Part shown: positions 62-35,962 of the stretch, piece after piece
Layout: each line of letters starts with the position of its first letter
Position numbering within the stretch: position 1 is the stretch's first letter
Assembly (NCBI GenBank): GCA_963704115.1
Contig: CAVPGY010000007.1
Location: 120,142 to 184,141, forward strand
Length of the DNA stretch: 64,000 nucleotides
Direction: 5' to 3'
DNA from: an uncultured Chloroflexia bacterium
Lineage (GTDB): Bacteria > Chloroflexota > Limnocylindria > QHBO01
The notes under the pieces: model-generated
What the model was told of the DNA's origin: nothing
Database searches by the model: none
What the model saw: the letters and a program-made list of their open reading frames with translations, nothing else
Program-made: the position numbers and the translations under genes

Positions 62-1171
62 CTACCGCGCCTCGAGGACGAAGAGCGGGATGAGCCGCTT
101 CGTGCGGCGCTGGTAGCTCCCGTACAGCGGGAACTGCTCGACGACGAACGGCCACAGGCGCGCCCGCTCGTCGGGATCGGTCACCTCGCGCGCGGTCATC
201 TCGGTCGTCTCCGTGCCGCGCTGCACGGTCGCGTGCGGATCAGCGCGCAGGTTGTGCACCCAGGCCGGATGCCGCACGGACCCTCCGCTCGAGCCGACGA
301 TGACCAGCGAATCGCCATCGGGCCACGCGTAGAGCTCGAGGGTCCGCGCCGTGCCGGTCCGGGCGCCACGGGTCGTCAGCATGATCCGCAGCCGCATCGG
401 GCTCGAGGCCGTCACGGGACGACCGGGTCCCCCACCGCCACCGTTCCGGGCGTCACCACGTCGGCGTACACGCCGAAGTCGATCTTCCGACCGTCGCGCA
501 TGCCCGCGGTATGCCTTGATGGCGTGCAGGGTCGGGAAGTCGCGGTGCCCGGTGTCCGGGTCCTGGGTCGTGATCACGCATCGCGGATCCGGCCGCGTGA
601 CGCGGACGACCGCCTGGCCGATGCGGATCTCGCTCCCCATCCACTCGTCCTCCTGGTGCGGCCGCGCGCCGGCGACGGCGATCAGCATCCGGAAGCGCCG
701 CGCGTCCAGGGGCTTTCCTTCGTTCGCCTGGCGCTGCAGCTCCTCGACCGATGCCTCCGACAGGATCGAGACCGGATTGCGATCCTGCTCGCCCGGCAGC
801 CGCTCCGACCGGATGAGCTGGAGGGGTCGTCCGGCATGCGCCGAGAGCGCGTCGGCCCAGGGACCGATGACCGGGCGCGCGGCGAAGCGGCGCTCGTAGA
901 TCACCGGGTGGATCGGCTCGCCGAGCGCGACCTCGCCGGTCACCATCTCGCCGTTCGGGAAGGTGAGGGTCAGGCGTTCCGGGTCGCGCTCCAGTCGCGC
1001 GGCGACCTGGACGAGCGGGCCGAACTTCGTGCCGTCGAAGATCCGGCCGTCGGCGAGGAGCGTGAAGCGCCGATCGTCGAGGACGCCATGCTCCTCCAGC
1101 TCGATGCGGTCGGGATGCTGGAGCGCCAGCCCGCGCACGGGCGTGACGGAGAGGCGGGAGACGGTGAGCAC
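62..1171 (-). CDS. MOSC-domain protein fused in frame to a deazaflavin(F420)-dependent nitroreductase (DDN) split-barrel domain; possibly two adjacent genes with no intervening stop
   Basis: The N-terminal ~230 aa has the MOSC beta-barrel and MOSC core (..RPDPRCVITTQDPDTGHRDFPTLHAIKAYR..). The C-terminal ~140 aa matches the DDN family (MLTTRGARTGTARTLELYAWPDGDSLVIVGSSGGSVRHPAWVHNLRADPHATVQ..WPFVVEQFPLYGSYQRRTKRLIPLFVLE). It is one uninterrupted 369-codon ORF with a GTG start at 1171. Confidence 0.6.
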   Translation of the reverse strand: MLTVSRLSVTPVRGLALQHPDRIELEEHGVLDDRRFTLLADGRIFDGTKFGPLVQVAARLERDPERLTLTFPNGEMVTGEVALGEPIHPVIYERRFAARPVIGPWADALSAHAGRPLQLIRSERLPGEQDRNPVSILSEASVEELQRQANEGKPLDARRFRMLIAVAGARPHQEDEWMGSEIRIGQAVVRVTRPDPRCVITTQDPDTGHRDFPTLHAIKAYRGHARRSEDRLRRVRRRGDARNGGGGGPGRPVTASSPMRLRIMLTTRGARTGTARTLELYAWPDGDSLVIVGSSGGSVRHPAWVHNLRADPHATVQRGTETTEMTAREVTDPDERARLWPFVVEQFPLYGSYQRRTKRLIPLFVLEAR

Positions 1172-1202
1172 AGCCCGACGATAGCGCGTCCGCGCATCCG
1201 GG

Positions 1203-1545
1203 GCTTGCCGATAGATCGGGCATCGGAGCGCACCATGCCCGCTCCTACCCGGGGCCGCCCGATGTATCGGGCACAGCGGCGCGTCAGGACCGGATCCCCG
1301 CCACTCCTGTGACGTGGTGCCCGATCTATCGGCGCCGCCGAGCCCAACGGCGGCCTCCCGTGCCGTGGTGCCCGATCTATCGGCGCAGTTGAGCCCAACG
1401 GCGGCCTCCCGTGCCGCGGTGCCCGATCTATCGGCGCCGCCGAGCCCAACGGCGGCCTCCCGTGCCGCGGTGCCCGATCTATCGGCGCCGCCGAGCCCAA
1501 CGGCGGCCTCCCGTGCCGCGGTGCCCGATCTATCGGCGCCGTCAG
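1203..1545. repeat. Family A intergenic repeat locus 1: five tandem 51-bp units (copies starting at 1320, 1371, 1422, 1473, 1524) preceded by one inverted (about 1207) and one degenerate (about 1258) copy of the palindromic core
   Basis: Direct reading shows the unit (gtg)cccgatctatcggcgccgccgagcccaacggcggcctcccgtgccgcg repeated with >90% identity. The core gcccgatctatcgggc is a 7+2+7 imperfect palindrome. The array fills the gap between the ASCH gene stop (1542) and the MOSC gene start (1171). Confidence 0.85.
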
Positions 1546-2024
1546 GCCTCGCCGACAGCGATCGGCTCCGGGTAGCGCTCCACCAGCCGGAATCGCTGAC
1601 AGACGATCAGGGTGTCGTCATCGAGCCGCCAGTCGGGATCACCCAGGCCCTCGCGCAGCTCGTCGAGGTAGGTGGTGAAGTACCGCTCGTGGGCGGCGCG
1701 CCAGTCGGCGGCGTCGGCAAAGCCCTCTCCCTCGTCGCGCGCGAACGCGTCGTCGACATCGGCCATGCGGAGAATGCGGCACTCGGTCGTCTCGATCACG
1801 CCCACGAACCTGCCATCCGCCCCGATGACCGCCTCCCGCATGCCGGGGACCGGCACGGTCTCACCGTCGAGCTCGTACTCCACCAGCAGGCCGGCGGTGG
1901 CGGTCTTCGTCCCGGCCAGCACCAGGTCGACGAGCTCGCGCCGCAGCTCGCTTCCCGGGTCGGCGAACCCGCAGACCTGCATCCCGCGGAAGGTCGAGGT
2001 GCCGGCATCGGCGGCGTCGTTCAT
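1542..2024 (-). CDS. ASCH (PUA-like) domain protein
   Basis: Matches the ASCH pattern: ELVDLVLAGTKTATAGLLVEYE..GETVPVPGMREAVIGADGRFVGVIETTECRIL..DDAFARDEGEGF..WRAAHERYF. Start taken at MNDAADAG (ATG 2022-2024); the longer ORF upstream is low-complexity. Confidence 0.7.
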   Translation of the reverse strand: MNDAADAGTSTFRGMQVCGFADPGSELRRELVDLVLAGTKTATAGLLVEYELDGETVPVPGMREAVIGADGRFVGVIETTECRILRMADVDDAFARDEGEGFADAADWRAAHERYFTTYLDELREGLGDPDWRLDDDTLIVCQRFRLVERYPEPIAVGEA

Positions 2025-10374: not shown

Positions 10375-11436
10375 CTAGCGGGAGCCCACGGCCGCACCCT
10401 GCACGATGGCGCGGTGCAGGTCCAGCAGGCCCGGCACCTCCACACGCTCCGCACGCGCCATCCCGCACTCGGTGCACACTCCCCACCGCCGGTCGCGCAG
10501 CTGCGCGTCGATGAGCTCGATCTGGGCCTCGGTGGTGCCCGCCTCCTGCCGTTCCGGGTGATACGGCACGAGTGCGAAGGCGATGTCGGTCTCCGCCGGC
10601 ACGCGCAGGTCGGCGAGGGCCGCGAAGTACGCGGGGTCACGCTGGTACTGCGGGACGGTGAAGGCGAACCAGGCGATCGGTCGGGATGCATCGGCGACCA
10701 GGCGGTTGGCGACGCGCACCTGGAGCTCGAGCGACTCGGGCTCGCGGAAGTGCTGATGCTGGTAGTCCCCGTAGCAGAGGTGGAGGCCGACCGGGACGTC
10801 GGCCGGGACCTCGTCCACGGCCGCGACGAGCCGCCCGACGACCGCCTCGAAGTCCTGGTTCGCCGTGGCCGGGAACGAGCCGACGAGGATCCCGAACTCG
10901 ACGGCCACGTCCCATTGGACGGCGATCTGGTCGTGCGGCAGGGCGTCGAGGACACGGTGGAGATCGGCGAACAGGGCCCGCGTGTACGAGGGCTCGAGCC
11001 GATCCTGGTCCTCGTCCACGACCCAGCTGTTGATGCTGGCCAGCGGGGTCGGGTACTGGACCTGGAACCGGGTCCCTGCGGGGATCACACCCTCGTCGCG
11101 GAGGCGACGGAACGTGTCCCAGCTCGCGAGGTACGCATCGGCATACCCGAGATCCGGCCAGTCGATGGCGTCAGGATCGGTTCCCTCCGCCAGGCGCACC
11201 CTCGGCATCTGGGTGTAGGCGCCGCCGGCCGGCATGTCGACGACGCCCGCCTGCTCCAGACCGGGCGTCGCCCAGAATCGCTGGAGCTGGAAGAAGATCC
11301 AGCCCTGCCGATCGCCGGTCTCGCCGTCGGAGTAGCGGGGCGCCAATGGACCGATGCGCTCGCCGAGCTCGCGGAAGACCGTCTCGGTGTCGGGCAGGTT
11401 GATGCTGCCATTGAGGTGAGCGAACGTGGGTGGCAA
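10375..11436 (-). CDS. UROD/MetE-like superfamily protein (cobalamin-independent methionine-synthase-like, single-domain)
   Basis: 353 aa with Zn-ligand-like spacing as in the MetE C-terminal domain (..LHLCYGDYQH.., ..CTECGMA..). The family assignment is tentative. Confidence 0.55.
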   Translation of the reverse strand: MPPTFAHLNGSINLPDTETVFRELGERIGPLAPRYSDGETGDRQGWIFFQLQRFWATPGLEQAGVVDMPAGGAYTQMPRVRLAEGTDPDAIDWPDLGYADAYLASWDTFRRLRDEGVIPAGTRFQVQYPTPLASINSWVVDEDQDRLEPSYTRALFADLHRVLDALPHDQIAVQWDVAVEFGILVGSFPATANQDFEAVVGRLVAAVDEVPADVPVGLHLCYGDYQHQHFREPESLELQVRVANRLVADASRPIAWFAFTVPQYQRDPAYFAALADLRVPAETDIAFALVPYHPERQEAGTTEAQIELIDAQLRDRRWGVCTECGMARAERVEVPGLLDLHRAIVQGAAVGSR

Positions 11437-11621
11437 CGCAAGCCTCCTTGCCTATCGCACCTGGCGGGGGCACCGCTTCCGTCGTGAGGACGATCGGGTC
11501 GGTTGCCGGGCCGTCGACGAGCCAGGACTCTCGGGCCACTCTGGATAGGTGTCGTCGTGACGACCGCCGGAATGTACCACGACCGCCTCGCTCAGGCACG
11601 CGGGATGCTTCATCGAGAGGC

Positions 11622-12526: not shown

Positions 12527-13626
12527 TCAGGCCGGGACCTCGGGCCAGTGGATGGCGTCGAGCCGGCAGCGCGTGACGCACAGCCCGCAGCGTTCGCACG
12601 TCTCCCCGTCGAGCGCGGCGCGGCCGTCGACGAGGTGGATCGCACCGTAGACGCAGGCAGTCACGCAGACGCCACAGCCGTTGCAGGCCTCCGGGTCGAT
12701 GATCGGCGGGGCAGCCGGCCGGCGGGCCAGGCGCGGGTGAGCGACATCCCGGTGAGCTCCCGCGCAGTGGCGTACCCGTGCGCGTCGAGCCACGTCTCGA
12801 GCTCGCTGCGCGAGCTTACCGAAGACCGACGGACCACGAAGGATGGCGGCGGTGCAGACGCCGACCGCCGAGGCCCCGGCCATCAGCATCTCGACGACGT
12901 CGGTGCCGCGGGTCACGCCGCCCACGCCGATGACCGGCAGGTCCATCGCGCGGGCGACGTCGCGGACGCATCGGAGGGCGAGTGGCTTGAGCGCCGGCCC
13001 GCTGATCCAGCCGTGGCCGTTCGGGCCGCCGAGCCGCGGCAGCGCCGTCTCGATGTCGATCGACAGCACCGGGCCGAACGAGTTGATCGCCACCAGCGCC
13101 GTCGGCGCCCGCGTCGGCCGCGAGCCGCGCCGCGTCGGCCCATGTCCTGGCCGTGCGGGCTGAGCTTCACGAGCACCGGCACGTCGAGGGCGGCCTTGGC
13201 CGCGCGGAGCGGCGCCCACCATCGGCTCCGGGTCCTCGCCGATGTAGTGGGTCGACAGCTCGACCGCATCGGCGAACGGGGCGACCTTCGGCGCCAGCTC
13301 GGCGATCTCCGCCGCCGGTGTAGCCGAGGCTGACGATGAGCGGCAGCCCGGCAGTGCGCGCCAGTGCGTACTCGGTCTCGAGCCACTGCTCGGGCGGCAG
13401 CTCGGACCACAGCTCGGTGTTGACGAAGTCGTGGCCGGATCTCGGCCATGTTCGGCGTCGGCGGCTCGGCGGCGCGGGTCGAGATCGTCTTGGCCACGAG
13501 CGCCGCCGGCGCCGCCCTCGGCACAGGCCAGCGATCGCCGGCGCCGTCGCGGACCGGCGGCCCGGCGGCCGGCAGGATCGGGTTGCGGAAGCGGAGGCCG
13601 CAGACCTCAACCGAGAGATCGGCCAT
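12527..13626 (-). pseudogene. PreA-like dihydropyrimidine/dihydroorotate dehydrogenase-family protein with C-terminal 2x[4Fe-4S] ferredoxin domain, multiply frameshifted
   Basis: N-terminus MADLSVEVCGLRFRNPILPAAGPP.., middle FVNTELWSELPPEQW..LPLIVSLGYT and AAKAALDVPVLVKLSPH lie in different frames. The last 231 aa are intact (INSFGPV..VIGVGGV..CNGCGVCVTAC..CERCGLCVTRC). Confidence 0.65.
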
Positions 13627-13639
13627 CATCCGGCCTCCG

Positions 13640-15030
13640 ATCGTCGTGGCCAGCAGCCGGGACGGGCTGAACGGATGCGCCCCGATCTCGTCCAGGCGCG
13701 CCCACAGCCGTACCGCCTGCACGTTGGCGTCGGCGAGCAGCTCGGCCTCGTCGACCCGGGTCAGCGCGCGGTCGCGGACGACCAGCTCGCCGTCGACCAT
13801 GACGTCGCGTACCGCCGCGGCCGCGACGCCGAAGATCCAGTGCGCGGCCAGCGTGGATGCGTCGAGCGGCGTCGGAGCGGCGGTAGATCGAGGACCACGA
13901 GGTCGGCCGGCGCGCCGGGCTCGAGTGCGGCCGAGGAGCGGCTCGGCGAAGGCACGTCCCACGATGCCGGCGCCGGCGGCCAGCCGTGCGAGCGCCCAGT
14001 CGCGGCCCGGTCCCGAGCTCCTCCTCGCGGCGCCGCAGGAAGCGCGCTCCGGGACTCCTCGAACAGGTCGCCGCCGATGCCGTCGGTGCCGAGCGCCACG
14101 CGCTCCGCCGAGCCAGCCGAGCGGCGGCCGGCCCACGCCGTTGTTCATGTTCGAGCGCGGGTTGTGGACGACGGTCGACCCGCGCTCGACCGGATCAGCG
14201 CCGCCTCGGCCGGGTCGAGGTGCACGCCGTGCGCCAGCACCGCGCGGTCGTCCAGCGCGCGCGGCCGCCAGGCGCTGCACCACGCGACCGCCGGTGCGCG
14301 CGACCGGCGTCGGCCTCGTCCACCGCGTCCTCGGCCACGTGGATGTGCAGGCCGGTGCCCGTCCGCCCCGCCAGGGCGGCACACGCGGCCAGCGTTGTCG
14401 TCGGACGAGGGTGAACGACGCGTGCGCGCCGACCATGCCGCGCGCCAGCGGATAGCCGCGCTCCGCGCATCGGCGCAGGAAGCGCGCGTTCTCGGCGAGG
14501 CCGGCGGCGGCGCGCTCCGGCCCGTCGCGATCGGTCACCTCGTAGGCCAGCACCGATCGGAGCCCGAGCTCGCCGAAGGCCTCGGCGATGACGTCGCAGC
14601 GAGCCGTCGATGGCGTTCGGCGAGGCGTGGTGGTCGACGAGGGTCGTGGTGCCGGCCAGCAGCGCCTCGCGAGCGGCGACGAGCGCCGAGGCCCGGACGC
14701 ATCGGCCCGTCGAGTGCCCGGTCGAGCCGCCACCAGACGCGCTGGAGGATCTCGAGGAAGCTGCGTCGGCGGCGCCAGGCGATAGGGCATGCCGCGCGCG
14801 AGGGCCGAGTACGCGTGCGTGTGCGCGTTGACGTTGCCCGGGATCACGAGACAGCCCGTGGCAGTCGCGCGTCGGGATCGCCCGTCCCCAGATCCGGGCC
14901 GAGCGCGGCGATCCGGCCATCGCGGACATGGAGATCCGCGCGCTCGACGATCGGCGGATCGAGCGAGCGGACGACGGTCGCCCCGGTGAGCACCACGTTC
15001 ATGTCGCGACCTCCTCAGCACGCCGCCGCT
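13640..15030 (-). pseudogene. SsnA-like amidohydrolase (chlorohydrolase/deaminase family), multiply frameshifted
   Basis: GCLVIPGNVNAHTHAYSALARGMP (metal-binding HxH), GLRSVLAYEVTDRDG..GAHASFTL, GSTVVHNPRSNMNNGVG, LAGTTTLVDHHASPNAIDGSL, LHIHVAEDAVDE and a C-terminal DVMVDGELVVRDRALTRVDEAEL are spread over three frames. Confidence 0.6.
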
Positions 15031-17636
15031 GGCCGAGCGGGCGAGCCGCGGGACCGCGGCCCGCGCGGCCGTGCAGTCGGACATCGGGAGGCTGGCGCCG
15101 CCGGATGCCGTCGAACGCGTGCAGGGCGCCGGCCACTGCGGCCGCGGTCGGGACGAGGACGGCCTCGCCGGCGCCCTTCGCCCCGTACGGGCCTTCCGGC
15201 TGGTGCTCCTCGACGAGGATCGTCTCGACCTCGGGCATGCCCGCGGCCGGGATGATGTTCGAGCGACTTGAGCGTCTCGGTGCTGCGGCCGGCCATCGGC
15301 CATGGCGAACTCCTCGCTCAGGGCGTAGCCGAGCCCCATGTGCACGCCGCCCTCGATCTGACCCTCGACCGGATCTGCGGGTTGATCGCGCGCCCGACGT
15401 CCTGCGCCGCGACGACGCGCTGCAGCCGTCCCTCGTCGTCGAGGATCACGACCTGCGTCGCCCAGCCGTAGCGCGATGTGCGTCAGCGGATCGGGGATGC
15501 CTCGGGCCGAGCGGCGTCGTCCAGTCGACCATGAACTCGCCGGCGAACTCCCGTCCGGTGAGCTCCTCCAGCGCCGATCCCTGGAGCGCCTCGCAGAGCG
15601 ACAGCGGCCGCGCGCTCGGCACGGCCTGGCCGCCGAGCAGGGTGGCGCGCGAGGCGGTCGTCTCGCCGGTGTCGAGCTCGCGCTCGGTATCGACCACCAC
15701 GTCGATCCGCTCGGCGGCAATGCCGAGCTCCTGCGGCGACGATCTGGCGCAGCGCGGTATGGATGCCCTGGCCCATCTCGGTCCACGAGTGGAACAGCGT
15801 GACGCGAGCCGTCGGCCCCGGGCGCATGATCGCCCGACCGTGCTCGATCAGCGCCGTTGCCGATGCCGGTGTTCTTGGCCCCACAGGCGATGCCGGCGTA
15901 GCGGGCCGACACGATAGGCGTCGCGCACCGCCAGCAGCGTCTCCTTGAGCCCGACGCCCGGGCCGAGCAGCTGGCCGGTGCCGAAGCGGTCACCGCGTCT
16001 CGAGCGCGTTGCGCCAGCGAATCTCCCAGCCGTCGAGACCGACGCGTTCGGCGAGCACGTCGAGCAGGCCCTCGATGCGCGAACGTCACCTGCGGGACGC
16101 CGAAGCCGCGCATCGCGCCGCACGGCGGGTTGTTCGTGTAGACGGCGCGCGCCTCGACGTCGACGTTGGCGACCCGGTACGCGCCGCAGGCATGCCCGGC
16201 GGCTCGCTCGAGCACCTTCGCGCCCACGCTGGCGTACGCGCCGGTGTCGCCGACGATCCGCGCACCGGACGGCGCAGCAGGCGCCCGTCGGCGTCGCAGC
16301 CGACGGTGTATTCGATCGTCATCGGGTGACGCTTCGGATGGAACCGGAGCGACTCAGGTCGCGTGAGGCGCAGCAGCACCGGCCGGCCGGTGTCCAGCGC
16401 GAGCAGCGCCGCCTGTGCCTGGACGCTCAGGTCCTCCTTGCCGCCGAAGGCTCCGCCGGTGGCCACCTGGGTGACGCGAACCGCCGTCTCGGGCAGTCCC
16501 AGCAGCGCCGCGATCTGGCGACGATCCTCCCAGGCCCCCTGGCCCTGCGAATAGACGCGCAGACGCCGTCCTTCGGGACCGCGAGCGCTGCCTCCGGCTC
16601 GAGGAAGGCGTGCTCGATGCGCTGTGTGCGTGAAGGTGTCGCTCACCACGTGCGCGGCGGCGGCGAGGGCGGCATCGACGTCACCGCGCCGGACGACCGA
16701 GGTCGAGAGGAGGTTGCCGCCGGGATGCAGCGGCGGCGCGTCGGGCGCCAGGGCCGCCAGCGGGTCGCTGATCGGCTCGAGGACGTCGTAGTCCACCTCG
16801 ATGAGCTGCGGCGGCCTCGCGCGCCGCGTCGCGCGTGTCGGCAGCCACCGCCGGCCAGCACGTCGCCGACGTAGCGCGTCGTCTCGCCCTCGGCGACGAA
16901 CACCGGCCAGTCGGGCGTGATGAGGCCACGAGAACCGATCGCCGGGGACGTCGCGCCAGGTGACGACCCGGATGACGCCCGGATGCCGTTCCGCGGCGCT
17001 CGTGTCGATGCGCCGCACGACCGCGCGCGGATGGTCGGAGAAGCGCATCGCGCCGTGCAGCATGCCCGGGGCCCGGAGATCCGCGACGAACGGCCGCTCA
17101 CCGAGCACCTGCTCGCGGCCCTCGTAGCGGGGTGCCGGCGCTCCGATCTCGTCCGCGGACGCGGATGCGGCCGGCGCGGCGCCAGCCCTGGCTTCGGCCA
17201 CGCCCCGAATCGCGTCGATGATCTTGATGTACCCGGTGCAGCGGCAGAGGTTGCCGGCCAGCGCCTTCGCCACCTCGTCGCGGCTCGGCTCCGCGTTGCG
17301 GGCGAGCAGCGCCTCCGCCTTCATGACGATCCCGGGCGAGCAGAAGCCGCATTGCGACGCGCCGGCGGCGACGAACGCCTGGGCCCAGGCCGCGCGGGTC
17401 TCGTCGGGCAGGCCCTCCAGCGTGAGAATCTCGCGGTCCTCGAATCGAACGGCGGGCTGCGCACACGAGACGACGGCGCGCCCGTCGACGATCACCGTGC
17501 AGGCCCCGCACGAGCCCTCGGGCGCGCAGCCGTCCTTCATCGAGCGCAGGCCGCATTCGTCGCGCAGCAGGTCGAGCAGGCTGGCGCCCGGCCTCGCGGA
17601 GGCCGCGGTGTGCCGTCCGTTGAGCGTCAGCCGCAT
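15030..17636 (-). pseudogene. Xanthine dehydrogenase / aldehyde oxidoreductase family protein with [2Fe-2S] N-terminal domain fused to the molybdopterin subunit (XdhD/CoxSL-like), with at least 8 frameshifts
   Basis: The first ~200 aa are intact (CGACTVIVDGRAVVSCAQP..ASQCGFCSPGIVMKAEALL..NLCRCTGYIKII, then GAPAPRYEGREQVLGERPFVADLRAPGMLHGAMRFS). The Mo domain is in alternating frames (DWPVFVAEGETTRYVGDVLA; AVAADTRDAAREAA; LIEVDYDVLEPISDPLAAL; VATGGAFGGKEDLSVQAQAALLALDTGRPVLLRLTRPESLRFHPKRHPM; YTNNPPCGAMRGFGVPQVTFA; VEGQIEGGVHMGLGYALSEE). Confidence 0.65.
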
Positions 17637-17868
17637 TCGGTCGCCTGTTCCCGGTCCGAGGGGCCATGTGGCCCTGTCGGGACCGCCTCTCCGGTCCCGA
17701 CTCTGGCCATGGGCGCGCCGTGGAGCGCGTGCCGTTGGTCCCGACCTCGTGGGCCTTCGGACCCAACGGAGTACGACGCATGCAACGACCCGGCCTGGCT
17801 ACCGAGGTGGTGGACGCATCGGTCTACGCAGCGGGCGGTACAGCGCTTCCGCGAGCAGCGCGATCGTC

Positions 17869-20662
<2,794 letters not shown>

Positions 20663-20666
<4 letters not shown>

Positions 20667-21616
20667 GAAGCTTCATCGGACGCGACATCCTCAGCCTGAA
20701 GGACTTCAGCCGGGAGGACTACTTCCGCGTCTTCGAGGTCGCCAACGAGCTGCGTCCGTACGCGCGCGATCGCCGCAACGGCGATCTGCTCAAGCACAAG
20801 ACCCTGCTGACGGCCTTCTATCAGCCATCGACGCGCACGCGCCTGTCGACCGAGGCGGCGATGCATCGGCTCGGCGGCGCGGTCCTCGGCTTCAGCGACG
20901 CGAAGATGACGCGCGCCGGCGACTTCTACCAGGAGTCGCTCAAGGACACCTTCCGCATGCTGGAGTCGTACGGCGACGTCATCGCCATCCGGCACTTCAC
21001 GGAGGGCGCGCCAGCCGAGGCGGCGAAGTGGTCGTCGGTCCCGATCATCAACTGTGGCGACGGCTGGGGCCAGCATCCGACCCAGGTGCTCACCGACCTG
21101 TACACGATCCTCCTGGAGCGCGGGACGCTCGACGGCCTGACGTACCTGCTGGTCGGCGACATGCGGATGCGCACGATGCACTCCATCCTCCACGCGCTCT
21201 CCCAGTTCGACGCGGAGGCGATCGTCGTCTCGCCGCCGGAGATGGCGCTCAAGCCCGAGTTCATGGCCGAGCTGGATGCGATGAGCGTCGCCTATCGCGT
21301 GGCGGAGGCCGTACCGGAGGTGATCGGCGAGGCGGACATCATCTACATGGAGCCGGTCGTCCAGGCCGACTACACCCAGTCGCGCGTGGAGCGCGGCGAC
21401 GACGTCGCGCGCACGCCGGCCGCGTACCGGGTGACGGCGCAGCTCCTGCGCGAGAAGGCGAAGCGCAGCTCGATCGTGCTGCACTCCCTGCCGCGCATGG
21501 ACGAGCTCAGCGCCGACGTCGACGAGACGCGGCACCAGCGCTACTGGGTCGAGGCGGCGAACGGGGTCGTGCTGCGCATGGCGCTGCTCGCCCTCGTCCT
21601 CGGCGCGGCCGAGTAG
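20663..21616 (+). CDS. Aspartate/ornithine carbamoyltransferase-family protein, ATCase(PyrB)-like
   Basis: STRTR carbamoyl-phosphate motif (FYQPSTRTRLSTEAAMHRLGG), HPTQ, HSLP and a PyrB-like C-terminus NGVVLRMALLALVLG. 317 aa, intact. Confidence 0.8.
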
Positions 21617-21634
21617 CACGGAAGGAACGAACCG

Positions 21635-22613
21635 ATGCAGACCGGATTGCGCGGACGGGACCTGATCAGCCTGTCCGACTGGACGAGCGAGGAGATCGAC
21701 ACCGTCCTGGAGGTCGCCGCGCACCTGAAGCGGGAGCGGGCGCTGGGCATCCCCCACCCCCTGCTGCGGGACCGCGTGCTGGCGATGCTCTTCTTCTTCA
21801 GCTCGACCCGCACCCGAGCCAGCTTCGAGGCGGGCATGGCCCAGCTCGGCGGGCATGCGCAGTTCATCGAGAGCCGCACGACGCAGATCGCGCACGGCGA
21901 CACCCCGAAGGAGATCGGCGAGATCCTCGGCCGCTACAACGACGGCATCGCCATCCGCCACGTGGACTGGGGCGCCGGCAACGCGTACCTCCGCGCGGTG
22001 GCGGAGGCCTCCCGTGTGCCCGTGCTGAACATGCAGTGCGACCTGTACCACCCGCACCAGATCCTCGCCGACCTGCTGACGATGCGCGAGAAGCTCGGTG
22101 CGCTGCGCGGACGCACGCTGACGATCAGCTGGGCGTACGCCGCCAGCTACCAGAAGCCGATCAGCGTGCCGCAGGACCTGGTGACCGCGGCGACGCGCTT
22201 CGGCATGAACGTCCGCCTCGTCCACCCGCCGGAGTTCCGGCTCATGCCCGAGGTCGTCGACGAGGCGACGCGCGAACGCTCGTCGCTCCGGCGGCTCGCT
22301 GGAGCTGATGGACGACTTCGACGCGGGCTTCCGCGGCACCGACGTGGTCTACGCCAAGAGCTGGGGGGCGCTGCTCACCGCGAAGGACGAGGCCGAGGGC
22401 GCGGAGATCGCGACCCGCTACACCGATTGGATCACCGACGAGCGGCGCATGGCGCTCGCCGCGGACGACGCGATCTTCATGCATCCGCTTCCGGCCGACC
22501 GCAACGTCGAGGTGACCGATGCGGTCATCGACTCGCCGGCCTCGGTCGTCTTCGACGAGGCCGAGAACCGGCTCCATGCGCAGAAGGCCGTCATGGCCCT
22601 GACGATGGGCTGA
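21635..22613 (+). pseudogene. YgeW-like (knotted) carbamoyltransferase of the OTC/ATC superfamily, one frameshift near 22270-22290
   Basis: N-terminal 215 aa in frame (FFFSSTRTRASFEAGMAQLGG, MQCDLYHPHQILADLLTM). The C-terminus continues in the ORF 22308..22613 (DDFDAGFRGTDVVYAKSW..AIFMHPLPADRNVEVTDAVIDSPASVVFDEAENRLHAQKAVMAL). Confidence 0.65.
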
Positions 22614-22626
22614 AAGGGACGAACCG

Positions 22627-23574
22627 ATGGCGAAGAGCGTGCTGGTCGTGGCGATCGGCGGGAACAGCCTCATCAAGGATGCGCAGCACATGAGCGTGCC
22701 GGACCAGTACGCGGCCCTCGGCACGACGAGCGGCCACATCGCGCGGATCATCAAGGACGGATGGCAGGTGGCCATCGGCCACGGAAACGGGCCGCAGGTC
22801 GGGTTCATCCTGCGCCGTTCCGAGCTCGCCGCCCACGAGCTCCACGAGGTGCCGCTCGACGTGTGCGACGCCGACACGCAGGGCGCGATCGGCTACGAAC
22901 TCCAGCAGAACCTGGGGCACGACTTCCGACGCCTGAAGATCGACCGCCAGGCGGTCACCGTCGTCACCCAGGTCGAGGTCGACCCCGCCGATCCGGCCTT
23001 CGAGCGTCCCTCGAAGCCGATCGGCACCTTCATGGACGAGGCGCAGGCCCGCACTCGCGAGGAGCGTGACGGCTGGGCGGTCCGCGAGGATGCGGGCCGT
23101 GGGTGGCGTCGCGTGGTCGCCTCGCCGCGGCCGATCCGGATCGTGGAGGAGCGCGCCGTGAAATCGCTGCTGCGCGACGACTTCGTGGTCATCACCGTCG
23201 GCGGCGGAGGCATCCCGGTCGTGACCGACGAGCACGGGGATCTTCGGGGCGTGGCGGCGGTCATCGACAAGGACTTCGCGTCGGCGCTCCTCGCCATCAC
23301 CCTGCGCGCCGACATCTTCATGATCACCACCGCCGTCGAGCGGGTGGCGCTCGACTTCGGCCGGCCTGAGCAGCGGTGGCTCGACCGCATGACCCTGGAC
23401 GAGGCGAAGGCCCATCTGGCCGAGGGCCGCCACTTCGCGGCCGGCAGCATGGCCCCCAAGATCGAGGCCTGCATCGAGTTTCTCGAGCACGGCGGAGGCG
23501 AGGCGATCATCACCAACCCGGAGCGCATGGAGGACGCCCTGGCCGGCGCGGCGGGGACCCGGATCGGCGGCTGA
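22627..23574 (+). CDS. Carbamate kinase
   Basis: VLVVAIGGNSL, GHGNGPQVG, ITVGGGGIPVV and SMAPKIEA are canonical ArcC/carbamate-kinase motifs. 315 aa, intact. Confidence 0.9.
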   Translation: MAKSVLVVAIGGNSLIKDAQHMSVPDQYAALGTTSGHIARIIKDGWQVAIGHGNGPQVGFILRRSELAAHELHEVPLDVCDADTQGAIGYELQQNLGHDFRRLKIDRQAVTVVTQVEVDPADPAFERPSKPIGTFMDEAQARTREERDGWAVREDAGRGWRRVVASPRPIRIVEERAVKSLLRDDFVVITVGGGGIPVVTDEHGDLRGVAAVIDKDFASALLAITLRADIFMITTAVERVALDFGRPEQRWLDRMTLDEAKAHLAEGRHFAAGSMAPKIEACIEFLEHGGGEAIITNPERMEDALAGAAGTRIGG

Positions 23575-23579
23575 GGACC

Positions 23580-26267
23580 CTACGCGGCGCCGCGATGGAT
23601 CGCGGTCAGCGGTCGGACGGCGAGCGCCTCGGCCAGCGGCAGCGGCCTCGCCCACAGGAATCCCTGTGCGCGGCAGAAGCCGAGGCCGAGCAGCACGTCG
23701 CGCTGCGCCTCGCGCTCGATTCCCTCGACAATCGTCTCGACTCCGAGCTTGTGGGCGATCTGGCCGATGGCCCGCAGGACCTCCTGGCGCTGCGGCTCGT
23801 CGTCCACGTGCTCCACCAGCGCGCGGTCGATCTTCAGGATGTCGATCGGCAGGCGGCCGAGGTACTCGAGGGACGAGTAGCCCGAGCCGAAGTCGTCGAG
23901 CGCGATCCGCACCCCGAGCTGCTGGATCTGCTCCAGCTCCGCCTCGGAACCGGCGCCGGCGGTCGCCAGCGTCGTCTCGGTGAGCTCGAGCTGCAGGCGC
24001 GATGGTTCGAGCCCGGTATCGGCGAGCACGCCGGCCACGACCTCCGGCAGCGTGCCGTGGCCGAGCTGGTGCGCGGAGACGTTGACCGAGACCATGACGC
24101 CGCTGCCGGCGGTGTCGGCGACGGCGCGCCGCAGGACCCACTCGCCGAGCTGCCCGATGAGACCGGCATCCTCGGCCAGGCCGATGAAGTCGGCGGGCAT
24201 GAGCCGCCCGAGCTGCGGGTGGTTCCAGCGCACGAGCGCCTCGACACCGAGCAGACCGCCATCGCACATGTCGATGATCGGCTGATACTCGAGCAGCAGC
24301 TCATCGGTCTCGAGCGCCCGCGCCAGGGCGCCGCGCAACTCCCGGCGTCGCTTCACGGGCTCGTCCATGCCCCGCTCGAAGTGCTGGATGCGGCCCTTGC
24401 CCATGGTCTTCGCGGCATACATGGCGGTGTCGGCGTCGCGGAGGATCTCGTCGGCGGCCTCGGCGCCGGTCGCATCGGTTGTGGACGGCGTCCCGAAGGC
24501 AACGCCGACGCTGGCCGTCAGGGTGACGATCTTGCCGGCGAGCTCGAACGGCTGCCCCAGCGCGTGGAGGATGCGGCCGGCCACGGCATCGATTCGCGTA
24601 CGCGGCGCACCCTCGAGGAGGAAGGCGAACTCGTCGCCGCCCATCCGGCAGGCGGTGTCCTCCGCCCGCAGGATCCCGAGCAGGCGCTCGGCCACCAGTC
24701 GCAGCAGTTCGTCGCCGGCGGCGTGGCCCAGCGAGTCGTTGATCACCTTGAAGTCATCGAGGTCGAGGAACAGCACCGCGACGGAGTCATCGCCCGTGCG
24801 ACGAACCAGGGCGTGGGCGAGCCGGTCGACGAATAGCACGCGGTTCGGCAGGCCGGTCAGGGGATCGTGAAGGGCCTGGTGCCGCAGCTGCTCCTCGAGT
24901 GCCTTGCGGTCGCTGATGTCGACGAGGATGCCCTGCACCATGTTCGGGCGGCCGTCGGCGTCGCGGGAGATCACCGCTTCGTCGTCGATCACCCACACCA
25001 CGCGGCCGTCCTTCGCCAGCAGCCGGTACTCCCAGCGTCCCTTCGGCTCGGCGCGCTCCTGGTCGCCCAGCTCGGCGAGGATCATCCGGTCCCGATCGGC
25101 CGGATGCATGCGCGACATCCACATCGTGGGATCGGCGGACCACTCCTCGGCGGTATAGCCGAGCAGCTCCTCGATCTTCGTGCTCACGAAGTGCCAGCGG
25201 CCGTTCTGACCCGCCTCGGCCACGTAGACGACGCCCGGCACGCGCTCGACCACCGATCGGTACTGCGCTTCCGCGACCGTGAGCTCGTCGGTGAGCTGCC
25301 GTTCGCGCGAGATGACCTGCTCACGATCGGCCAGCAGGACGGTCTGCCGGGCGATCGCCCCGACGGCCACCAGTCCGAGCGCCAGGCCGGTCAGCAGCCG
25401 CAGCCAGCCGGTGACGAGCATCGGCTGCGAGATGACGGTGATTACCAGCACGCCGGCAAGCAGGGCACTGGCCAGGGGCAACAGGCCCCGGAGCCAGGCC
25501 GCGACCGCCGCGTAGGCAGGGCCGGCATCCTCCTCCGCGGTCCAGTTGGCGGCACCATGGCCCACCAGCATCGCCCCCGCCGCGACCAGCGCGTGCATCC
25601 CCCAGCCGAAGATCTCGCCCACCATCGGGACGAGCAGACCGGTGAGCCCGGCGGCAGCCAGCCCGCTGCCGACCAGCATCTCCCATGGGCCGACCGCCCG
25701 AAGGGGCACGCGGACGGTCAGGTTGAGCAGCAGGGTGGCCCCCAGCGCGGCGGTGAAGAACGCGGCCTGGACGAGGACGAGCATGCCGATCGGGCCGAGG
25801 CCGAGCCCGGCACCGGCGATGAGGGCCGCGCCGGTGATGGCCAGCAGGATGGAGGCGGCGTCGAGATAGAGCGCGAGCTCGTCCGCGGTCCGCATTCGCC
25901 CGCGGGCGGCGGAGCCGAAGGTCCCCGCGGCCGCGACGACGAGCCCGCCGATGGTGAGGCCCGCGAGGATGGGGGCGTCGGTGTCGTGCACCCCGGCCAG
26001 CCGGGCAAGCTCGGAGGCCAGCCAGACCGCGACGCCGAGGCCGATCCAGCCGCGCACCCGCCGTTCGCGCGGCGTGGCCGCCCGGACGAAGCCGCGCCAG
26101 GCAACCAGCGTGGCGGCCGTGGTGGCGATCACCCGGGCGAGGTGACCGTCGACGACCCCGGTCGCGAGCAGCGCCAGCGCGGCCACGCTCGCACCCCCGA
26201 CCAGCGGGAGCGTGATCCCGGGTCGCAGTGGCGTCGACCGAGCGAGGATTCCCTGGTTCACGGCCAT
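23580..26267 (-). CDS. Membrane sensor diguanylate cyclase/phosphodiesterase (multi-TM N-terminus, PAS, GGDEF, EAL)
   Basis: RMGGDEF (GGDEF) and ELTETTL..DDFGSGYSSLEYL (EAL), preceded by ~300 aa of hydrophobic helices and a PAS segment. Start taken at MAVNQGIL; the ORF extends to 26420. Confidence 0.85.
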   Translation of the reverse strand: MAVNQGILARSTPLRPGITLPLVGGASVAALALLATGVVDGHLARVIATTAATLVAWRGFVRAATPRERRVRGWIGLGVAVWLASELARLAGVHDTDAPILAGLTIGGLVVAAAGTFGSAARGRMRTADELALYLDAASILLAITGAALIAGAGLGLGPIGMLVLVQAAFFTAALGATLLLNLTVRVPLRAVGPWEMLVGSGLAAAGLTGLLVPMVGEIFGWGMHALVAAGAMLVGHGAANWTAEEDAGPAYAAVAAWLRGLLPLASALLAGVLVITVISQPMLVTGWLRLLTGLALGLVAVGAIARQTVLLADREQVISRERQLTDELTVAEAQYRSVVERVPGVVYVAEAGQNGRWHFVSTKIEELLGYTAEEWSADPTMWMSRMHPADRDRMILAELGDQERAEPKGRWEYRLLAKDGRVVWVIDDEAVISRDADGRPNMVQGILVDISDRKALEEQLRHQALHDPLTGLPNRVLFVDRLAHALVRRTGDDSVAVLFLDLDDFKVINDSLGHAAGDELLRLVAERLLGILRAEDTACRMGGDEFAFLLEGAPRTRIDAVAGRILHALGQPFELAGKIVTLTASVGVAFGTPSTTDATGAEAADEILRDADTAMYAAKTMGKGRIQHFERGMDEPVKRRRELRGALARALETDELLLEYQPIIDMCDGGLLGVEALVRWNHPQLGRLMPADFIGLAEDAGLIGQLGEWVLRRAVADTAGSGVMVSVNVSAHQLGHGTLPEVVAGVLADTGLEPSRLQLELTETTLATAGAGSEAELEQIQQLGVRIALDDFGSGYSSLEYLGRLPIDILKIDRALVEHVDDEPQRQEVLRAIGQIAHKLGVETIVEGIEREAQRDVLLGLGFCRAQGFLWARPLPLAEALAVRPLTAIHRGAA

Positions 26268-26391
26268 CGGTATTCGCGGGCACCGCCGAACGTGGCTTCC
26301 AACCATGGCAGGGTACGGTTGCACGGCCGGCTGGGGGATGGGCCGATAGTACCCACCGCAGGATCGCTCGGGACCGCGGTAGCCTGTCCGG

Positions 26392-27318
26392 ATGCACCCG
26401 TTCCGCTTCGCAGTCCACACCGGCGGCGGCGAGCTCGTGGAGGACTGGACGGGCTTCGCGCGGCGCGCCGAAGCACTCGGCTATGCGGTGCTGTACGTCA
26501 CCGATCACCTCGGTCGCGGGCTCTCGCCGATCGCCGCCATGGCGGCCGCGGCAGCAGCCACCGACACGATCCGCATCGGGTCCTACGTCTTCGCCAACGA
26601 CTTCCGCCATCCCCTGATCCTGGCGCGTGAGGCGGCAACGCTCGACCGGCTCAGCGGCGGACGCTTCGAGCTCGGCCTCGGCGCCGGGTGGATGCGCTCG
26701 GACTATCGCCAGCTTGGCATCCCCTACGACCGTCCGGGGCTGCGCATCGACCGGCTCCAGGAATCGTTCCGGCTCATCAGGCGCCTGCTGGGCGGCGAGG
26801 AGGTGACGCACGAGGGCCGCTTCTATCGGCTCGACCGCGCGCGGGCGTGGCCGGTCCCGGTCCAGCGACCGCATCCGCCGATCATGATCGCCGGCGGCGG
26901 TCCTCGCCTGCTGCGCTTCGCGGCGCGGGAGGCCCAGATCGTCGGGCTCGCGCCGCAGATGACCCCGACGGGACGGCCGATGCTCCGCCTTGCCAGCGAG
27001 GAGGCCTTCGCCGGTCGCGTGGAGCTCATTCGGTCGGCAGCCGGCGACCGCTTTGACCAGCTGGAGCTCAACGTGTTCGTCGCGGACGCCGGCGTGGTCG
27101 GCAGCGATCAGCCGCTCGGCGCGAGCGCCGCGGCGGTCGCCAAGTCGGCCGGCCCGGCGATCATCGGCGGCTCGCCGTACCTGCTGTACGGCACACGGAC
27201 CCAGCTGCGCGAGGCGATGCTCCGACGTCGTGAGCGTTCCGGCATCAGCTCGTACGGCATCCCCGTGCGGGCCATGGAAGCCTTCGCCCCGCTGGTGGCG
27301 GAGCTCAGCGGGCGCTGA
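26392..27318 (+). CDS. LLM-class F420-dependent oxidoreductase (luciferase-like monooxygenase family, TIGR03621-like)
   Basis: 308 aa with a luciferase-like TIM barrel pattern (VLYVTDHL, LGLGAGW, RPHPPIMIAGGGPRLLRFAAREAQIVGL). Confidence 0.75.
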   Translation: MHPFRFAVHTGGGELVEDWTGFARRAEALGYAVLYVTDHLGRGLSPIAAMAAAAAATDTIRIGSYVFANDFRHPLILAREAATLDRLSGGRFELGLGAGWMRSDYRQLGIPYDRPGLRIDRLQESFRLIRRLLGGEEVTHEGRFYRLDRARAWPVPVQRPHPPIMIAGGGPRLLRFAAREAQIVGLAPQMTPTGRPMLRLASEEAFAGRVELIRSAAGDRFDQLELNVFVADAGVVGSDQPLGASAAAVAKSAGPAIIGGSPYLLYGTRTQLREAMLRRRERSGISSYGIPVRAMEAFAPLVAELSGR

Positions 27319-28130: not shown

Positions 28131-29570
28131 TCAGCGGGCGTAGCGGATGCCGCCGCCGCGTCGTTCCTTGTTGAGCCGTCGGTTGAGGTGGAGCCCCTCG
28201 AGGACGAACTCGACGGCGGAGGCGATGCCGGCCGGCGACTCGCCCGCGTCAAGCCGGGCGACGGCCTCGCCGAGCTCCGGGGCGGCCTTGGCCAGCTCCC
28301 CGTGGGCGCGGGAGGCGACGGCCTCGCCGACCTCGGCCTCCAGGCCCTCCTCCTCGAAGCGTTCGAGCGAGCGGCACGAGCTCGGAGAGCGCGAAGTGGC
28401 GGTTGAAGACGTTGACCACGGCCCGCGCCACGAGCTTCTCGACGACGCGGTCCTCGCGCGTCTCGTCGCCGAGCGTCTCCAGCTCGATCTTGCCGGCGGT
28501 CGATGCGACCACCGCCGGCAGGTCGCTGATCCGGGGCGCGGCGCTCGGCTCACCCAGCCGGACGGCGCGCTTCAGGGCGGCGGCGGCCAGCGTCTCGTGG
28601 TTCGCGATGCGTGACCCGCACGCTCACGCCGGAGCGCTGGCTGACCTCCGAGGAGCGACGGGCCAGCTGCGACAGCTCGGCGACGACCTCCTTCATGAAG
28701 CCGGGCATCTCGACCGGCACCGACGGTCGCCGGCATCGTCGTCGAAGGCCGAATGCCTCCGCCTCCATGATCGCGATCTCGGTCGATCGACTCCTCGGGG
28801 TAGTGCGTCCGGATCTGCGCGCCGAATCGGTCCTTGAGCGGCGTGATGATCCGGCCGCGGCTGGTGTAGTCCTCCGGGTTGGCGCTGGCGATGACGAACA
28901 GGTCGAGCTCGAGCCGGACGCGGTAGCCGCGCACCTGGACGTCGCGCTCCTCCATCACGTTGAGCAGGCCGACCTGGATCCGCTCGGCCAGGTCCGGCAG
29001 CTCGTTGAGGCTGAAGATGCCCCGATGCGTCCGCGGCAGCAGCCCGTAGTGGATCGTCAGCTCGTCGGAGAGGTAGCGGCCCTCGGCGACCTTGACCGGA
29101 TCCACCTCGCCGATGAGGTCGGCGATGCTGATGTCCGGCGTGGCGAGCTTCTCGCTGTAGCGATCCGCGCGCGGCCCACCAGGCGATGCGGCGTGTCGTC
29201 ACCCTCGCTCGCGCCACGATCGTGCGTCCCAGCGGCGAGACCGGGTGCATCGGGTCGTCGTGGAGCTCGGTGCCGGCGAGGTACGGGAGCCACGGATCCA
29301 AGCAGGCCGACCAGCGAGCCCGCGCGATGCGGCTCTTGGCCTGGCCGCGCTCGCCGAGCAGGATGACGTCCTGCCCGGCCAGGATCGCGTTCTCGAGCTG
29401 CGGGAGCACCGTCTCGTCGTAGCCGAGGATGCCGGGCAGGAACGGATCGCCCGCCGCGATCCGCGCCAGCAGGTTGGCGCGCAGCTCGCCTTCACGCTGC
29501 GCGATCGCCACCCGGCGGCGCGCAGCTCCCCGAGGGTCGTGTCGGCCGGTCGGTCGGTGGCGTGGGTCAT
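28131..29570 (-). pseudogene. ChlI/BchI-like AAA+ ATPase (Mg-chelatase ATPase family), at least 3 frameshifts
   Basis: Fragments in ORFs 29199..29570, 28693..29511, 28572..29105, 28550..28768 and 28131..28553: ILGYDETVLPQLENAILAGQDVILLGERGQAKSRIAR (Walker A region) and [68 protein letters not shown] (sensor region, resembles GTMNPEEG..LLDRFG). Confidence 0.5.
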
Positions 29571-35873: not shown

Positions 35874-35962
35874 CCCGCTCCGCAGCCCCTCACGACGCGG
35901 CGCCGGACGCCTGGTGGCTCCGGCGCCGCGTCGCGTCCGCGGGTTCCGGCTACCCTTGGGGC

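Follow-up and report, generated by a model that had tools for sequence, protein, structure and literature searches.

What could a bacterium do with a gene cluster that sets a molybdenum hydroxylase, an amidohydrolase and a flavoenzyme back to back with two carbamoyltransferases, a carbamate kinase and two pyridoxal phosphate (PLP) enzymes, and could such a cluster work when much of it is interrupted by frameshifts? This question is raised by positions 12527 to 23574 of a 64,000-nucleotide stretch of DNA (contig CAVPGY010000007.1, positions 120,142 to 184,141; hereafter the window) from an uncultured Chloroflexia bacterium. Judging from sequence comparisons and gene context, we consider it probable that the locus is a variant of the reductive (2,8-dioxopurine) pathway for urate/purine degradation, with genes that function and with 57 frame breaks that are errors of assembly or consensus.

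In 2025, the reductive urate pathway was defined in gut bacteria by two studies (Li et al., PMC12507026; Liu et al., bioRxiv 10.1101/2025.04.24.650524) and a commentary. Urate is converted to 2,8-dioxopurine (‘yanthine’) by XdhD-YgfM or XdhAC (PMC12507026; bioRxiv 10.1101/2025.04.24.650524), and this compound is reduced by YgfK, or by the PydA-like enzyme UacX in C. difficile (PMC12507026). Ring opening by SsnA yields ureidomethyl-hydantoin or 5-ureido-dihydrouracil, and HyuA then gives 2,3-diureidopropionate (PMC12507026; bioRxiv 10.1101/2025.04.24.650524). The ureido groups are removed phosphorolytically by YgeW (hydrolytically by UacY in C. difficile) and by YgeY, in an order that is disputed even for YgeW, such that the published intermediates are 2,3-diureidopropionate, albizziin or 3-amino-2-ureidopropionate, and diaminopropionate (PMC12507026; bioRxiv 10.1101/2025.04.24.650524). 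YgeX converts diaminopropionate to pyruvate, and YqeA produces ATP from carbamoyl phosphate (PMC12507026; bioRxiv 10.1101/2025.04.24.650524). The pathway has been described as enriched in host-associated anaerobes, mostly Bacillota. Li et al. (PMC12507026) also noted SsnA neighbourhoods in Chloroflexota and Actinomycetota and a variant with an F420 luciferase-like reductase; neighbours in their SsnA network were coloured by Pfam only, with PF00185 standing for ‘YgeW’ and PF00291 for ‘YgeX’.

The G+C content of the window is ~72%, and for this reason its raw lists of open reading frames (ORFs) are dominated by shadow ORFs. With a filter on G+C content at third codon positions (GC3), clean genes are found on both sides of the 12.5-19.2 kb region and none inside it. 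Pfam scans of three-frame translations reveal eight genes in a divergent arrangement, three on the minus strand and five on the plus strand, rather than the nine counted in an earlier reading of the same DNA that was made from the sequence only. The minus-strand matches (DHO_dh plus 4Fe-4S; amidohydrolase; Fer2/Fer2_2/Ald_Xan_dh_C/MoCoBD_1/MoCoBD_2) are each split over several frames. Those on the plus strand are PALP, OTCace_N plus OTCace twice (the second time split over two frames) and AA_kinase. PALP1, the first plus-strand PLP gene, is too fragmented for detection by Pfam, and was recovered with a frameshift-aware dynamic programme that aligned the intact proteins of a related locus, L005, to the window DNA. 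Both methods bear out the gene positions and content of the sequence-only reading. Its ATGA overlaps are present as well, at 19284 (PALP1 stop and PALP2 ATG) and at 20663 (PALP2 and CT1), and the breaks fall in the genes it had named, namely the whole minus arm, PALP1 and CT2, with PALP2, CT1 and the carbamate kinase gene intact. The features are as follows.

12527 to 13626, minus strand: UacX/PreA-like reductase with a DHO_dh flavin mononucleotide (FMN) domain and a C-terminal 2x[4Fe-4S] portion; 9 frame breaks; stop codon TGA at 12529-12527.
13626 to 15002, minus strand: SsnA-like amidohydrolase; 15 frame breaks.
14999 to 17636, minus strand: fused [2Fe-2S] and molybdopterin hydroxylase (XdhD/XdhAC-like); 17 frame breaks, all after residue 234.
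17637 to 17779: divergent intergenic region of 143 bp with repeated TTGGTCCC(GAC) boxes; probable operator/promoter.
17780 to 19287, plus strand: PALP1, a fold-type-II PLP enzyme resembling CysK and cystathionine beta-synthase (CBS), with N- and C-terminal extensions; 15 frame breaks.
19284 to 20666, plus strand: PALP2, a ThrC-like fold-type-II PLP enzyme with a Cys-rich N-terminus; intact.
20663 to 21616, plus strand: CT1, a carbamoyltransferase resembling aspartate carbamoyltransferase (ATCase); intact.
21635 to 22613, plus strand: CT2, a carbamoyltransferase of 325 aa from the clade of ornithine carbamoyltransferase (OTC), N-acetylornithine carbamoyltransferase (AOTC) and YgeW; one extra base near 22268.
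22627 to 23574, plus strand: carbamate kinase; intact.
26392 to 27318, plus strand: F420-dependent luciferase-like oxidoreductase; its link to the pathway is uncertain.

After frame correction, the hydroxylase scores 955 bits on TIGR03311 (cut-off 830) with the full length of the model covered, and is 80% identical to its L005 counterpart; it does not match the XdhD model TIGR03313. The corrected amidohydrolase is 73% identical to that of L005 and ~36% identical to E. coli SsnA over its full length. Its scores of 402 and 416 bits compare with SsnA (IPR017700) cut-offs of 455 (TIGR03314) and 444 (NF005540) and with 148 bits for the next family, making SsnA by far the best family for this predicted protein. 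Directly downstream lies the gene for the reductase, which is 86.8% identical to the intact L005 orthologue once its frame is corrected. The best NCBIfam matches of this protein are pyrD and PreA, all below cut-off, and its architecture is that described for C. difficile UacX (PMC12507026). The sequence-only reading had listed a PreA-like dehydrogenase among the novelties of the locus; the gene is indeed present, but replacement of YgfK by UacX had already been described for C. difficile.

The plus arm encodes two different carbamoyltransferases, as had been proposed earlier, one ATCase-like (CT1) and one OTC/AOTC-like (CT2). CT1 is 95.6% identical to the L005 protein and 41% identical to E. 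coli PyrB, and scores 263 bits on TIGR00670 (cut-off 237) and 224 bits on NF002032 (cut-off 263), passing the first model and failing the second. It keeps the carbamoyl-phosphate motifs (STRTR, R105, HPTQ) and R167. Position K84 of the 80s loop (E. coli numbering) aligns to Tyr, and the region of R229 and Q231 carries the insertion YMEPVVQADYTQSRVE, around which the alignment is ambiguous. We take K84, R167, R229 and Q231 to be the aspartate-binding residues of ATCase, with K84 and R229 holding the beta-carboxylate. Loss of K84 and R229 would fit a 2-ureido acid with a non-carboxylate side chain, such as 2,3-diureidopropionate. CT1 is publicly annotated as aspartate carbamoyltransferase. In the survey described below, it is accompanied in 56 loci by the PLP pair, CT2, carbamate kinase or the hydroxylase/SsnA genes, and no pyr genes are present in the gene tables of loci L001 to L005.

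CT2 carries one frame break and is 92.6% identical to its L005 counterpart. Its best NCBIfam match is AOTC (273 bits; cut-off 288), a family whose members are knotted, and it shares the YgeW/AOTC-type motifs WAY-SY-KP-SVPQ, KSW and HPLPAD. The sequence-only reading had called this protein YgeW-like. Identity to E. coli YgeW is 35%, the protein is 325 aa long versus ~390 aa and lacks the YgeW insertions, and scores on the YgeW models TIGR03316 and NF005538 are 179 and 195 bits, far under the cut-offs of 500 and 453. True YgeW orthologues (45-78% identity) are found in other loci that carry the PLP pair. On these comparisons, CT2 is not a YgeW orthologue. The carbamate kinase passes both TIGR00746 arcC (367 bits; cut-off 358) and NF009007 (381 bits; cut-off 266), and is 47% identical to E. 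coli YqeA.

The two PLP enzymes belong to no curated family with confidence, as evident by scores of 76 bits for PALP1 on TIGR01139 cysK (cut-off 351) and 44 bits for PALP2 on TIGR00260 (cut-off 167), with other ThrC models yielding at most 83 bits for PALP2 against cut-offs of at least 167. By frameshift-aware alignment, PALP1 is 84.7% identical to L005 and 92.9% identical to L001, and its intact relatives of 497 aa are 90% identical. The AlphaFold2 (AF2) model of a PALP1 orthologue, P0137 (mean predicted local distance difference test score, pLDDT, 85), is nearest to CBS and cysteine synthase at 22-28% identity, and includes a confidently predicted helical C-terminal extension. This extension had been called unique, but it is common to every PALP1 orthologue found, all of which are ~495-500 aa long. 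The AF2 model of PALP2 (pLDDT 85) is nearest to threonine synthase, threonine deaminase and serine racemase at 16-22% identity. Both proteins keep the ‘SHK’ lysine motif. A specific function for either enzyme was sought by structural search and was not obtained, the neighbours being generic fold-type-II enzymes only.

Relatives of PALP2 number in the thousands, and one is 100% identical. The closest named ones belong to Candidatus Limnocylindria (Chloroflexota), and not to the Actinobacteria/Thermoleophilia to which the sequence-only reading had pointed. Metagenome contigs with PALP2 relatives of 66-82% identity show the same arrangement. In L003 and L005, all eight genes are intact, encoding a hydroxylase of 871-890 aa, an amidohydrolase of 453-454 aa, a DHO_dh/Fer4 protein of 371-373 aa, PALP1 of 498 aa, PALP2 of 470-471 aa, CT1 of 317 aa, CT2 of 325 aa and a kinase of 315 aa; in L001 and L002, the plus arm is intact. 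The arrangement thus recurs with intact genes elsewhere, as the earlier reading had proposed to check.

A scan of a genome collection for the ThrC-like family yielded 80 loci, distributed over Chloroflexota (Limnocylindria and ‘Chloroflexia’ metagenome-assembled genomes, MAGs), Actinomycetota (Gaiellales, Acidimicrobiia, Thermoleophilia, Nocardioides), Acidobacteriota (Thermoanaerobaculia), Gemmatimonadales, Binatia, Myxococcota, Planctomycetota and one Rhizobacter. Gene content was counted in 85 loci (84 retrieved via the ThrC-like protein, plus the window) by tblastn with L005 and E. coli proteins. Single-linkage clustering of ORFs collapsed into one giant cluster on account of high-GC shadow ORFs, so that only a few small clusters were used and the targeted tblastn searches were relied on. 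PALP1 lies next to PALP2 in 77 of the 85 loci. The hydroxylase is present in 59, CT1 in 56, carbamate kinase in 41, SsnA (at least 50% identity) in 39 and CT2 in 36, and the reductase is UacX in 15, YgfK in 18 and an F420 luciferase-like enzyme in 24. Fewer loci carry HyuA (13), true YgeW (12), YgeY (8) or YgeX (2). Homologues of the parts are co-localised in most loci rather than scattered. The three reductases never share a locus, except in L048, which has YgfK with HyuA, and this alternation matches the variants named in PMC12507026. Likewise, CT1/CT2 and YgeW/YgeY are largely mutually exclusive and behave as alternative modules.

Elsewhere in the survey, the PLP pair is accompanied by true orthologues of YgfK, HyuA, YgeW (45-78%) and YgeY, and by the urate permease UacT. 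The clearest case is L083 from Rhizobacter, where the order is hydroxylase, SsnA, PALP1, PALP2, HyuA, YgfK, YgeW, YgeY, carbamate kinase and UacT. Of the E. coli pathway enzyme genes tested, only YgeX is without a homologue in this locus, which carries the pair in addition. The window also has no YgeX homologue. L083 is the strongest evidence that the pair stands in for YgeX, and we conclude that PALP1-PALP2 most probably replaces YgeX only. The sequence-only reading had the CysK- and ThrC-like enzymes replacing YgeX, YgeY and HyuA together; its proposal probably holds for YgeX, but not for YgeY and HyuA, both of which are kept in L083.

From homology and gene context, the steps of the pathway can be assigned as follows. 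The molybdenum/Fe-S hydroxylase would reduce urate to 2,8-dioxopurine, which the UacX-like FMN/[4Fe-4S] enzyme would dearomatise. The SsnA-like amidohydrolase would then open the ring to give ureidomethyl-hydantoin or 5-ureido-dihydrouracil, and a hydantoinase step for which no window gene accounts would be required to reach 2,3-diureidopropionate. CT1 is proposed to phosphorolyse the 2-ureido (N-carbamoyl-alpha-amino) group, and CT2 the 3-ureido group, for example that of albizziin, the lower homologue of citrulline, thereby taking over from the hydrolase YgeY. Carbamate kinase would turn the carbamoyl phosphate into ATP, which could give two ATP per urate and not one. Finally, the coupled PALP1-PALP2 enzymes would do the job of YgeX, converting 2,3-diaminopropionate or a mono-ureido amino acid to pyruvate and ammonia. 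Carbamoylated amino-acid intermediates had been anticipated by the sequence-only reading and match the chemistry published in 2025, and the proposed kinship with, and distinctness from, the enterobacterial ygeW/ssnA/xdhD locus is supported. That reading also considered the pathway to be uncharacterised, which no longer applies to the core; the variant with CT1/CT2 and the PLP pair was not found described in the literature that was searched.

A further question is the origin of the frame breaks. Alignment of the L005 proteins places 17 breaks in the hydroxylase gene, 15 in the SsnA-like gene, 9 in the UacX-like gene, 15 in PALP1 and 1 in CT2, for a total of 57. One extra base accounts for 48 of the 57 (84%), and two extra bases, equivalent to one missing base, account for the other 9 (binomial p = 1.5e-7 versus an even split). 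No in-frame stop interrupts the 2189 codons, and gaps of whole codons hardly occur. With a probability of 0.022 that a substitution creates a stop, and with an assumed ratio of substitutions to indels, neutrality would predict ~13 stops at a ratio of 10 and ~4 at a ratio of 3. The broken PALP1 gene shares 90% DNA identity and 92.9% protein identity with L001, its closest relative. As a fraction of all codon differences, nonsynonymous changes amount to 0.28 in the broken genes for PALP1 and an AAA protein, and to 0.14-0.47 in intact genes.

The AAA gene just mentioned (28134-29570; AAA/sigma54-activator-like; 475 aa in L001) lies outside the cluster and has 9 breaks of the same kind, after correction of which it is 92% identical. 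The stretch beyond it, up to 30400, also appears broken, as judged against a mistranslated reference, and an aldehyde dehydrogenase gene at ~31.0-32.5 kb is split into two frames. Several long-read MAGs (‘MFD ... contig_N’) carry 2-4 breaks in the same genes as the cluster, and most short-read assemblies have none, or one that possibly arises from an alignment end. A 3-periodic Viterbi frame caller was used only to flag patches, as breaks ~100 nt apart are unresolvable with it and the densest patches are called ‘non-coding’. Given the insertion bias, the lack of in-frame stops, the signature of purifying selection and the breaks in unrelated genes at 28.1-32.5 kb, the breaks are most likely patchy consensus errors of a long-read or poorly polished assembly, and not signs of decay. 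Homopolymer-type nanopore errors were considered as the specific cause and rejected, since most inserted bases are not beside an identical base. As a separate observation, the closest relative is represented by two independent short-read assemblies, L001 and L002, and in each the contig stops within the hydroxylase gene. This hints that short reads assemble or cover this very GC-rich arm (up to 75% G+C in the window) with difficulty.

Several points weigh against a functional urate pathway with artefactual breaks. Identity between the hydroxylase and E. coli XdhD is only 26%, and the substrate and regiochemistry of the window enzyme are unreadable from sequence. SsnA-like scores fall slightly under both curated cut-offs. 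A gene is missing for one ring-opening step, as tblastn with E. coli HyuA found no HyuA-type hydantoinase anywhere in the 64-kb window, nor in the 15 UacX-type loci. The ureido group assigned to each transferase is a guess, and a role for CT1 in pyrimidine synthesis is possible given that it passes one ATCase equivalog cut-off. The model also leaves unexplained why two PLP enzymes should replace one. With regard to the breaks, their density of ~1 per 115 bp is several-fold above that of other long-read MAGs, and the insertions are mainly of C or G and for the most part do not extend a homopolymer.

Some of these points would also suit a cluster in which the same enzyme logic, with molybdenum hydroxylase, PydA-like reductase, cyclic amidohydrolase and ureido phosphorolysis, serves to degrade an N-heterocycle other than urate, be it a pyrimidine or a different purine or oxopurine. 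The UacX-like enzyme is a homologue of PydA/PreA, CT1 is ATCase-like, ureido acids resembling N-carbamoyl-aspartate arise in pyrimidine metabolism, and the absence of HyuA from the window and UacX-type loci and the distance of the hydroxylase from XdhD point the same way. However, the amidohydrolase is SsnA-type and not dihydropyrimidinase-type, pyrimidine reduction requires no molybdenum hydroxylase, and the PLP pair and hydroxylase occur elsewhere with YgfK, HyuA, YgeW, YgeY and UacT. We therefore regard a substrate other than urate as unlikely.

The sequence-only reading had suggested that the locus is decaying, and a recently inactivated pseudogene island in this strain would account for breaks that stand in the deposited sequence, are concentrated at 12.7-19.1 kb next to intact genes, and show the unusual density and non-homopolymer insertions noted above. 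Such decay is quite improbable. The net +1 insertions run opposite to the deletion bias of bacterial pseudogenes, stops are absent where ~13 or ~4 would be expected, whole-codon gaps are almost lacking, and the split genes show the same pattern of synonymous and nonsynonymous change as intact genes. Unrelated genes at 28.1-32.5 kb are similarly broken, and those plus-arm genes that would serve no purpose if the minus arm were lost remain intact, at 92-96% identity to L005. It is very improbable indeed that the plus arm is biosynthetic (cysteine or threonine synthase with aspartate or ornithine carbamoyltransferase) and adjacent to the minus arm by coincidence, as the IMG and NCBI names of these proteins and the TIGR00670 score of CT1 would have it, because PALP1 and PALP2 fall far short of the cysK and thrC cut-offs, CT2 passes no cut-off at all, a carbamate kinase gene shares the operon, no pyrC, pyrI, carAB or arg genes are nearby in L001 to L005, and the link with the hydroxylase and SsnA genes is kept in several phyla.

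Returning to the urate reading, the role of the PLP pair invites a more specific and decidedly tentative proposal. PALP1 and PALP2 could make up a two-component PLP system of a kind not recognised before, taking the place of diaminopropionate ammonia-lyase. In the many relatives that carry CT1 alone, without CT2, YgeY or HyuA, a ureido-amino acid may itself be the substrate of the pair; with albizziin, for instance, the ureido group could undergo beta-elimination or replacement. Where both transferases are present, phosphorolysis by CT1 and CT2 would allow ATP to be gained from each of the two ureido groups of urate. The pair could work as a complex, as a racemase plus a lyase, or by beta-replacement followed by a dehydratase step. 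If this proposal is correct, a more energy-efficient anaerobic catabolism of purines is apparently common in soil Chloroflexota, Actinomycetota and Acidobacteriota, and not in gut Bacillota.

Some members of these two PLP families depart from the common pattern. P0159/P0160 (665 aa) and P0120 (673 aa) are unusually long and are possible fusions or have miscalled starts. Solitary ThrC-like homologues (53-54% identity) are present in L025, L046, L052, L056 and L069, which are MAGs of Acidimicrobiaceae/Acidimicrobiales, with no PALP1, hydroxylase, SsnA or carbamoyltransferase gene within 10 kb; these may represent a paralogous context with a different role.

The 143-bp region between the two arms is strongly conserved in seven UacX-type loci and contains repeats and a palindrome. 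Boxes of the sequence TTGGTCCC(GAC) occur upstream of PALP1 only in UacX-type loci, and in L006 there are three copies ~20 nt apart. The region 17637-17779 has no Rfam match. A riboswitch was considered for this region and rejected, as the apparent stem also has no compensatory changes in relatives. These two results, and the short box at ~20-nt spacing, favour an operator over a riboswitch, and the boxes are probably the operator for a regulator. The palindrome within this region is GTCGGGACCG / CGGTCCCGAC, and the region was observed also in L001, L003 to L008, L010, L017, L030 and L060. The window contains no tRNA genes.

The luciferase-like gene at 26392-27318 directly follows the carbamate kinase gene in L005 and lies close behind it in L003, and is at this position in only 4 closely related loci. 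Its L005 orthologue scores 314 bits on TIGR03621 (cut-off 213). In the window and L001, it is parted from the kinase gene by a gene for a PAS-GGDEF-EAL c-di-GMP protein (window 23580-26420, minus strand), which has the same place in L001/L002. In L005 this gene has another position, and the stretch of L003 that was read does not show it; it looks like a lineage-specific insertion or rearrangement beside the cluster. F420-linked genes are frequent in the window (65-1606, 26392-27318 and 35852-36952) and in relatives (L005 14331-15257 and 2336-2812), comprising a TIGR03621-type luciferase-like oxidoreductase, genes of the F420H2-dependent quinone reductase family and another luciferase-like gene; F420 may be a local reductant. 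Just outside the locus, an ORF at 10375-11451 (minus strand, 353 aa, GC3 0.90) has no Pfam or NCBIfam match.

Among the surveyed loci, two further features recur near the cluster, namely nucleoside-type ABC transporter genes and a second amidohydrolase gene, which is deaminase-like. In the Actinomycetota loci L014, L021, L027, L031, L043, L059 and L061, a second molybdenum hydroxylase-like gene and a TRZ/ATZ-type amidohydrolase gene (guanine or 8-oxoguanine deaminase-like) are found beside the cluster, and BMP/nucleoside-type ABC transporter genes are a recurring feature of some loci, L021, L035 and L059 among them. These additional hydroxylase, deaminase and transporter genes probably represent feeder steps from other purines.

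On the functional reading of the locus, a modular reductive urate cluster would be widespread among phyla of soil and sediment, versus the host-associated and mostly Bacillota range that has been published. Three steps would be assigned to uncharacterised families, namely the ATCase-like transferase, the OTC/AOTC-like transferase and the PLP pair, and phosphorolysis of both ureido groups would double the ATP yield per urate. In public databases, these families account for thousands of proteins that bear the names aspartate carbamoyltransferase, cysteine synthase or threonine synthase, and one of the families, CT1, passes a curated equivalog cut-off. The locus also illustrates that frameshifts clustered densely in a MAG can be mistaken for pseudogenisation, a question that three simple checks settle: which way the indels run, whether in-frame stops occur, and what the synonymous/nonsynonymous ratio is once the frames are corrected.

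Among known systems, the E. coli cluster (xdhD-ygfM, ygfK, ssnA, hyuA, ygeW, ygeY, ygeX, yqeA) shares with the window a molybdenum hydroxylase, an SsnA-like amidohydrolase, a flavin/Fe-S reductase, a predicted OTCase-fold ureido phosphorolysis coupled to carbamate kinase, and a terminal fold-type-II PLP enzyme. The window cluster differs in that it is without YgfM, YgfK, HyuA, YgeY and YgeX. UacX is in the place of YgfK, two carbamoyltransferases that are not YgeW orthologues are in the places of YgeW and YgeY, a coupled CysK/CBS-like and ThrC-like pair is in the place of diaminopropionate ammonia-lyase, and the hydroxylase matches TIGR03311 rather than TIGR03313. The C. difficile variant (XdhD without YgfM, UacX, UacY) is similar, by its description, in having a hydroxylase with no flavin adenine dinucleotide (FAD) subunit and a PydA-like DHO_dh/[4Fe-4S] reductase that replaces YgfK. 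There the 2-ureido group is cleaved hydrolytically by UacY, with no carbamoyltransferase or carbamate kinase, whereas the window has two transferases and a kinase. The F420/luciferase-like variant of Chloroflexota involves the same phyla and SsnA neighbourhoods, and in 24 of our 85 loci a luciferase-like oxidoreductase gene is next to SsnA; however, the lineage of the window uses UacX, and the published colouring does not separate CT1, CT2 and the PLP pair. The arginine deiminase pathway, with its catabolic OTCase and carbamate kinase, is set apart from the window cluster by a different substrate, by the two transferases of the latter and by arginine deiminase, which the window cluster does not have, but would have in common with it the phosphorolysis of a ureido group to carbamoyl phosphate and the subsequent formation of ATP at the substrate level.

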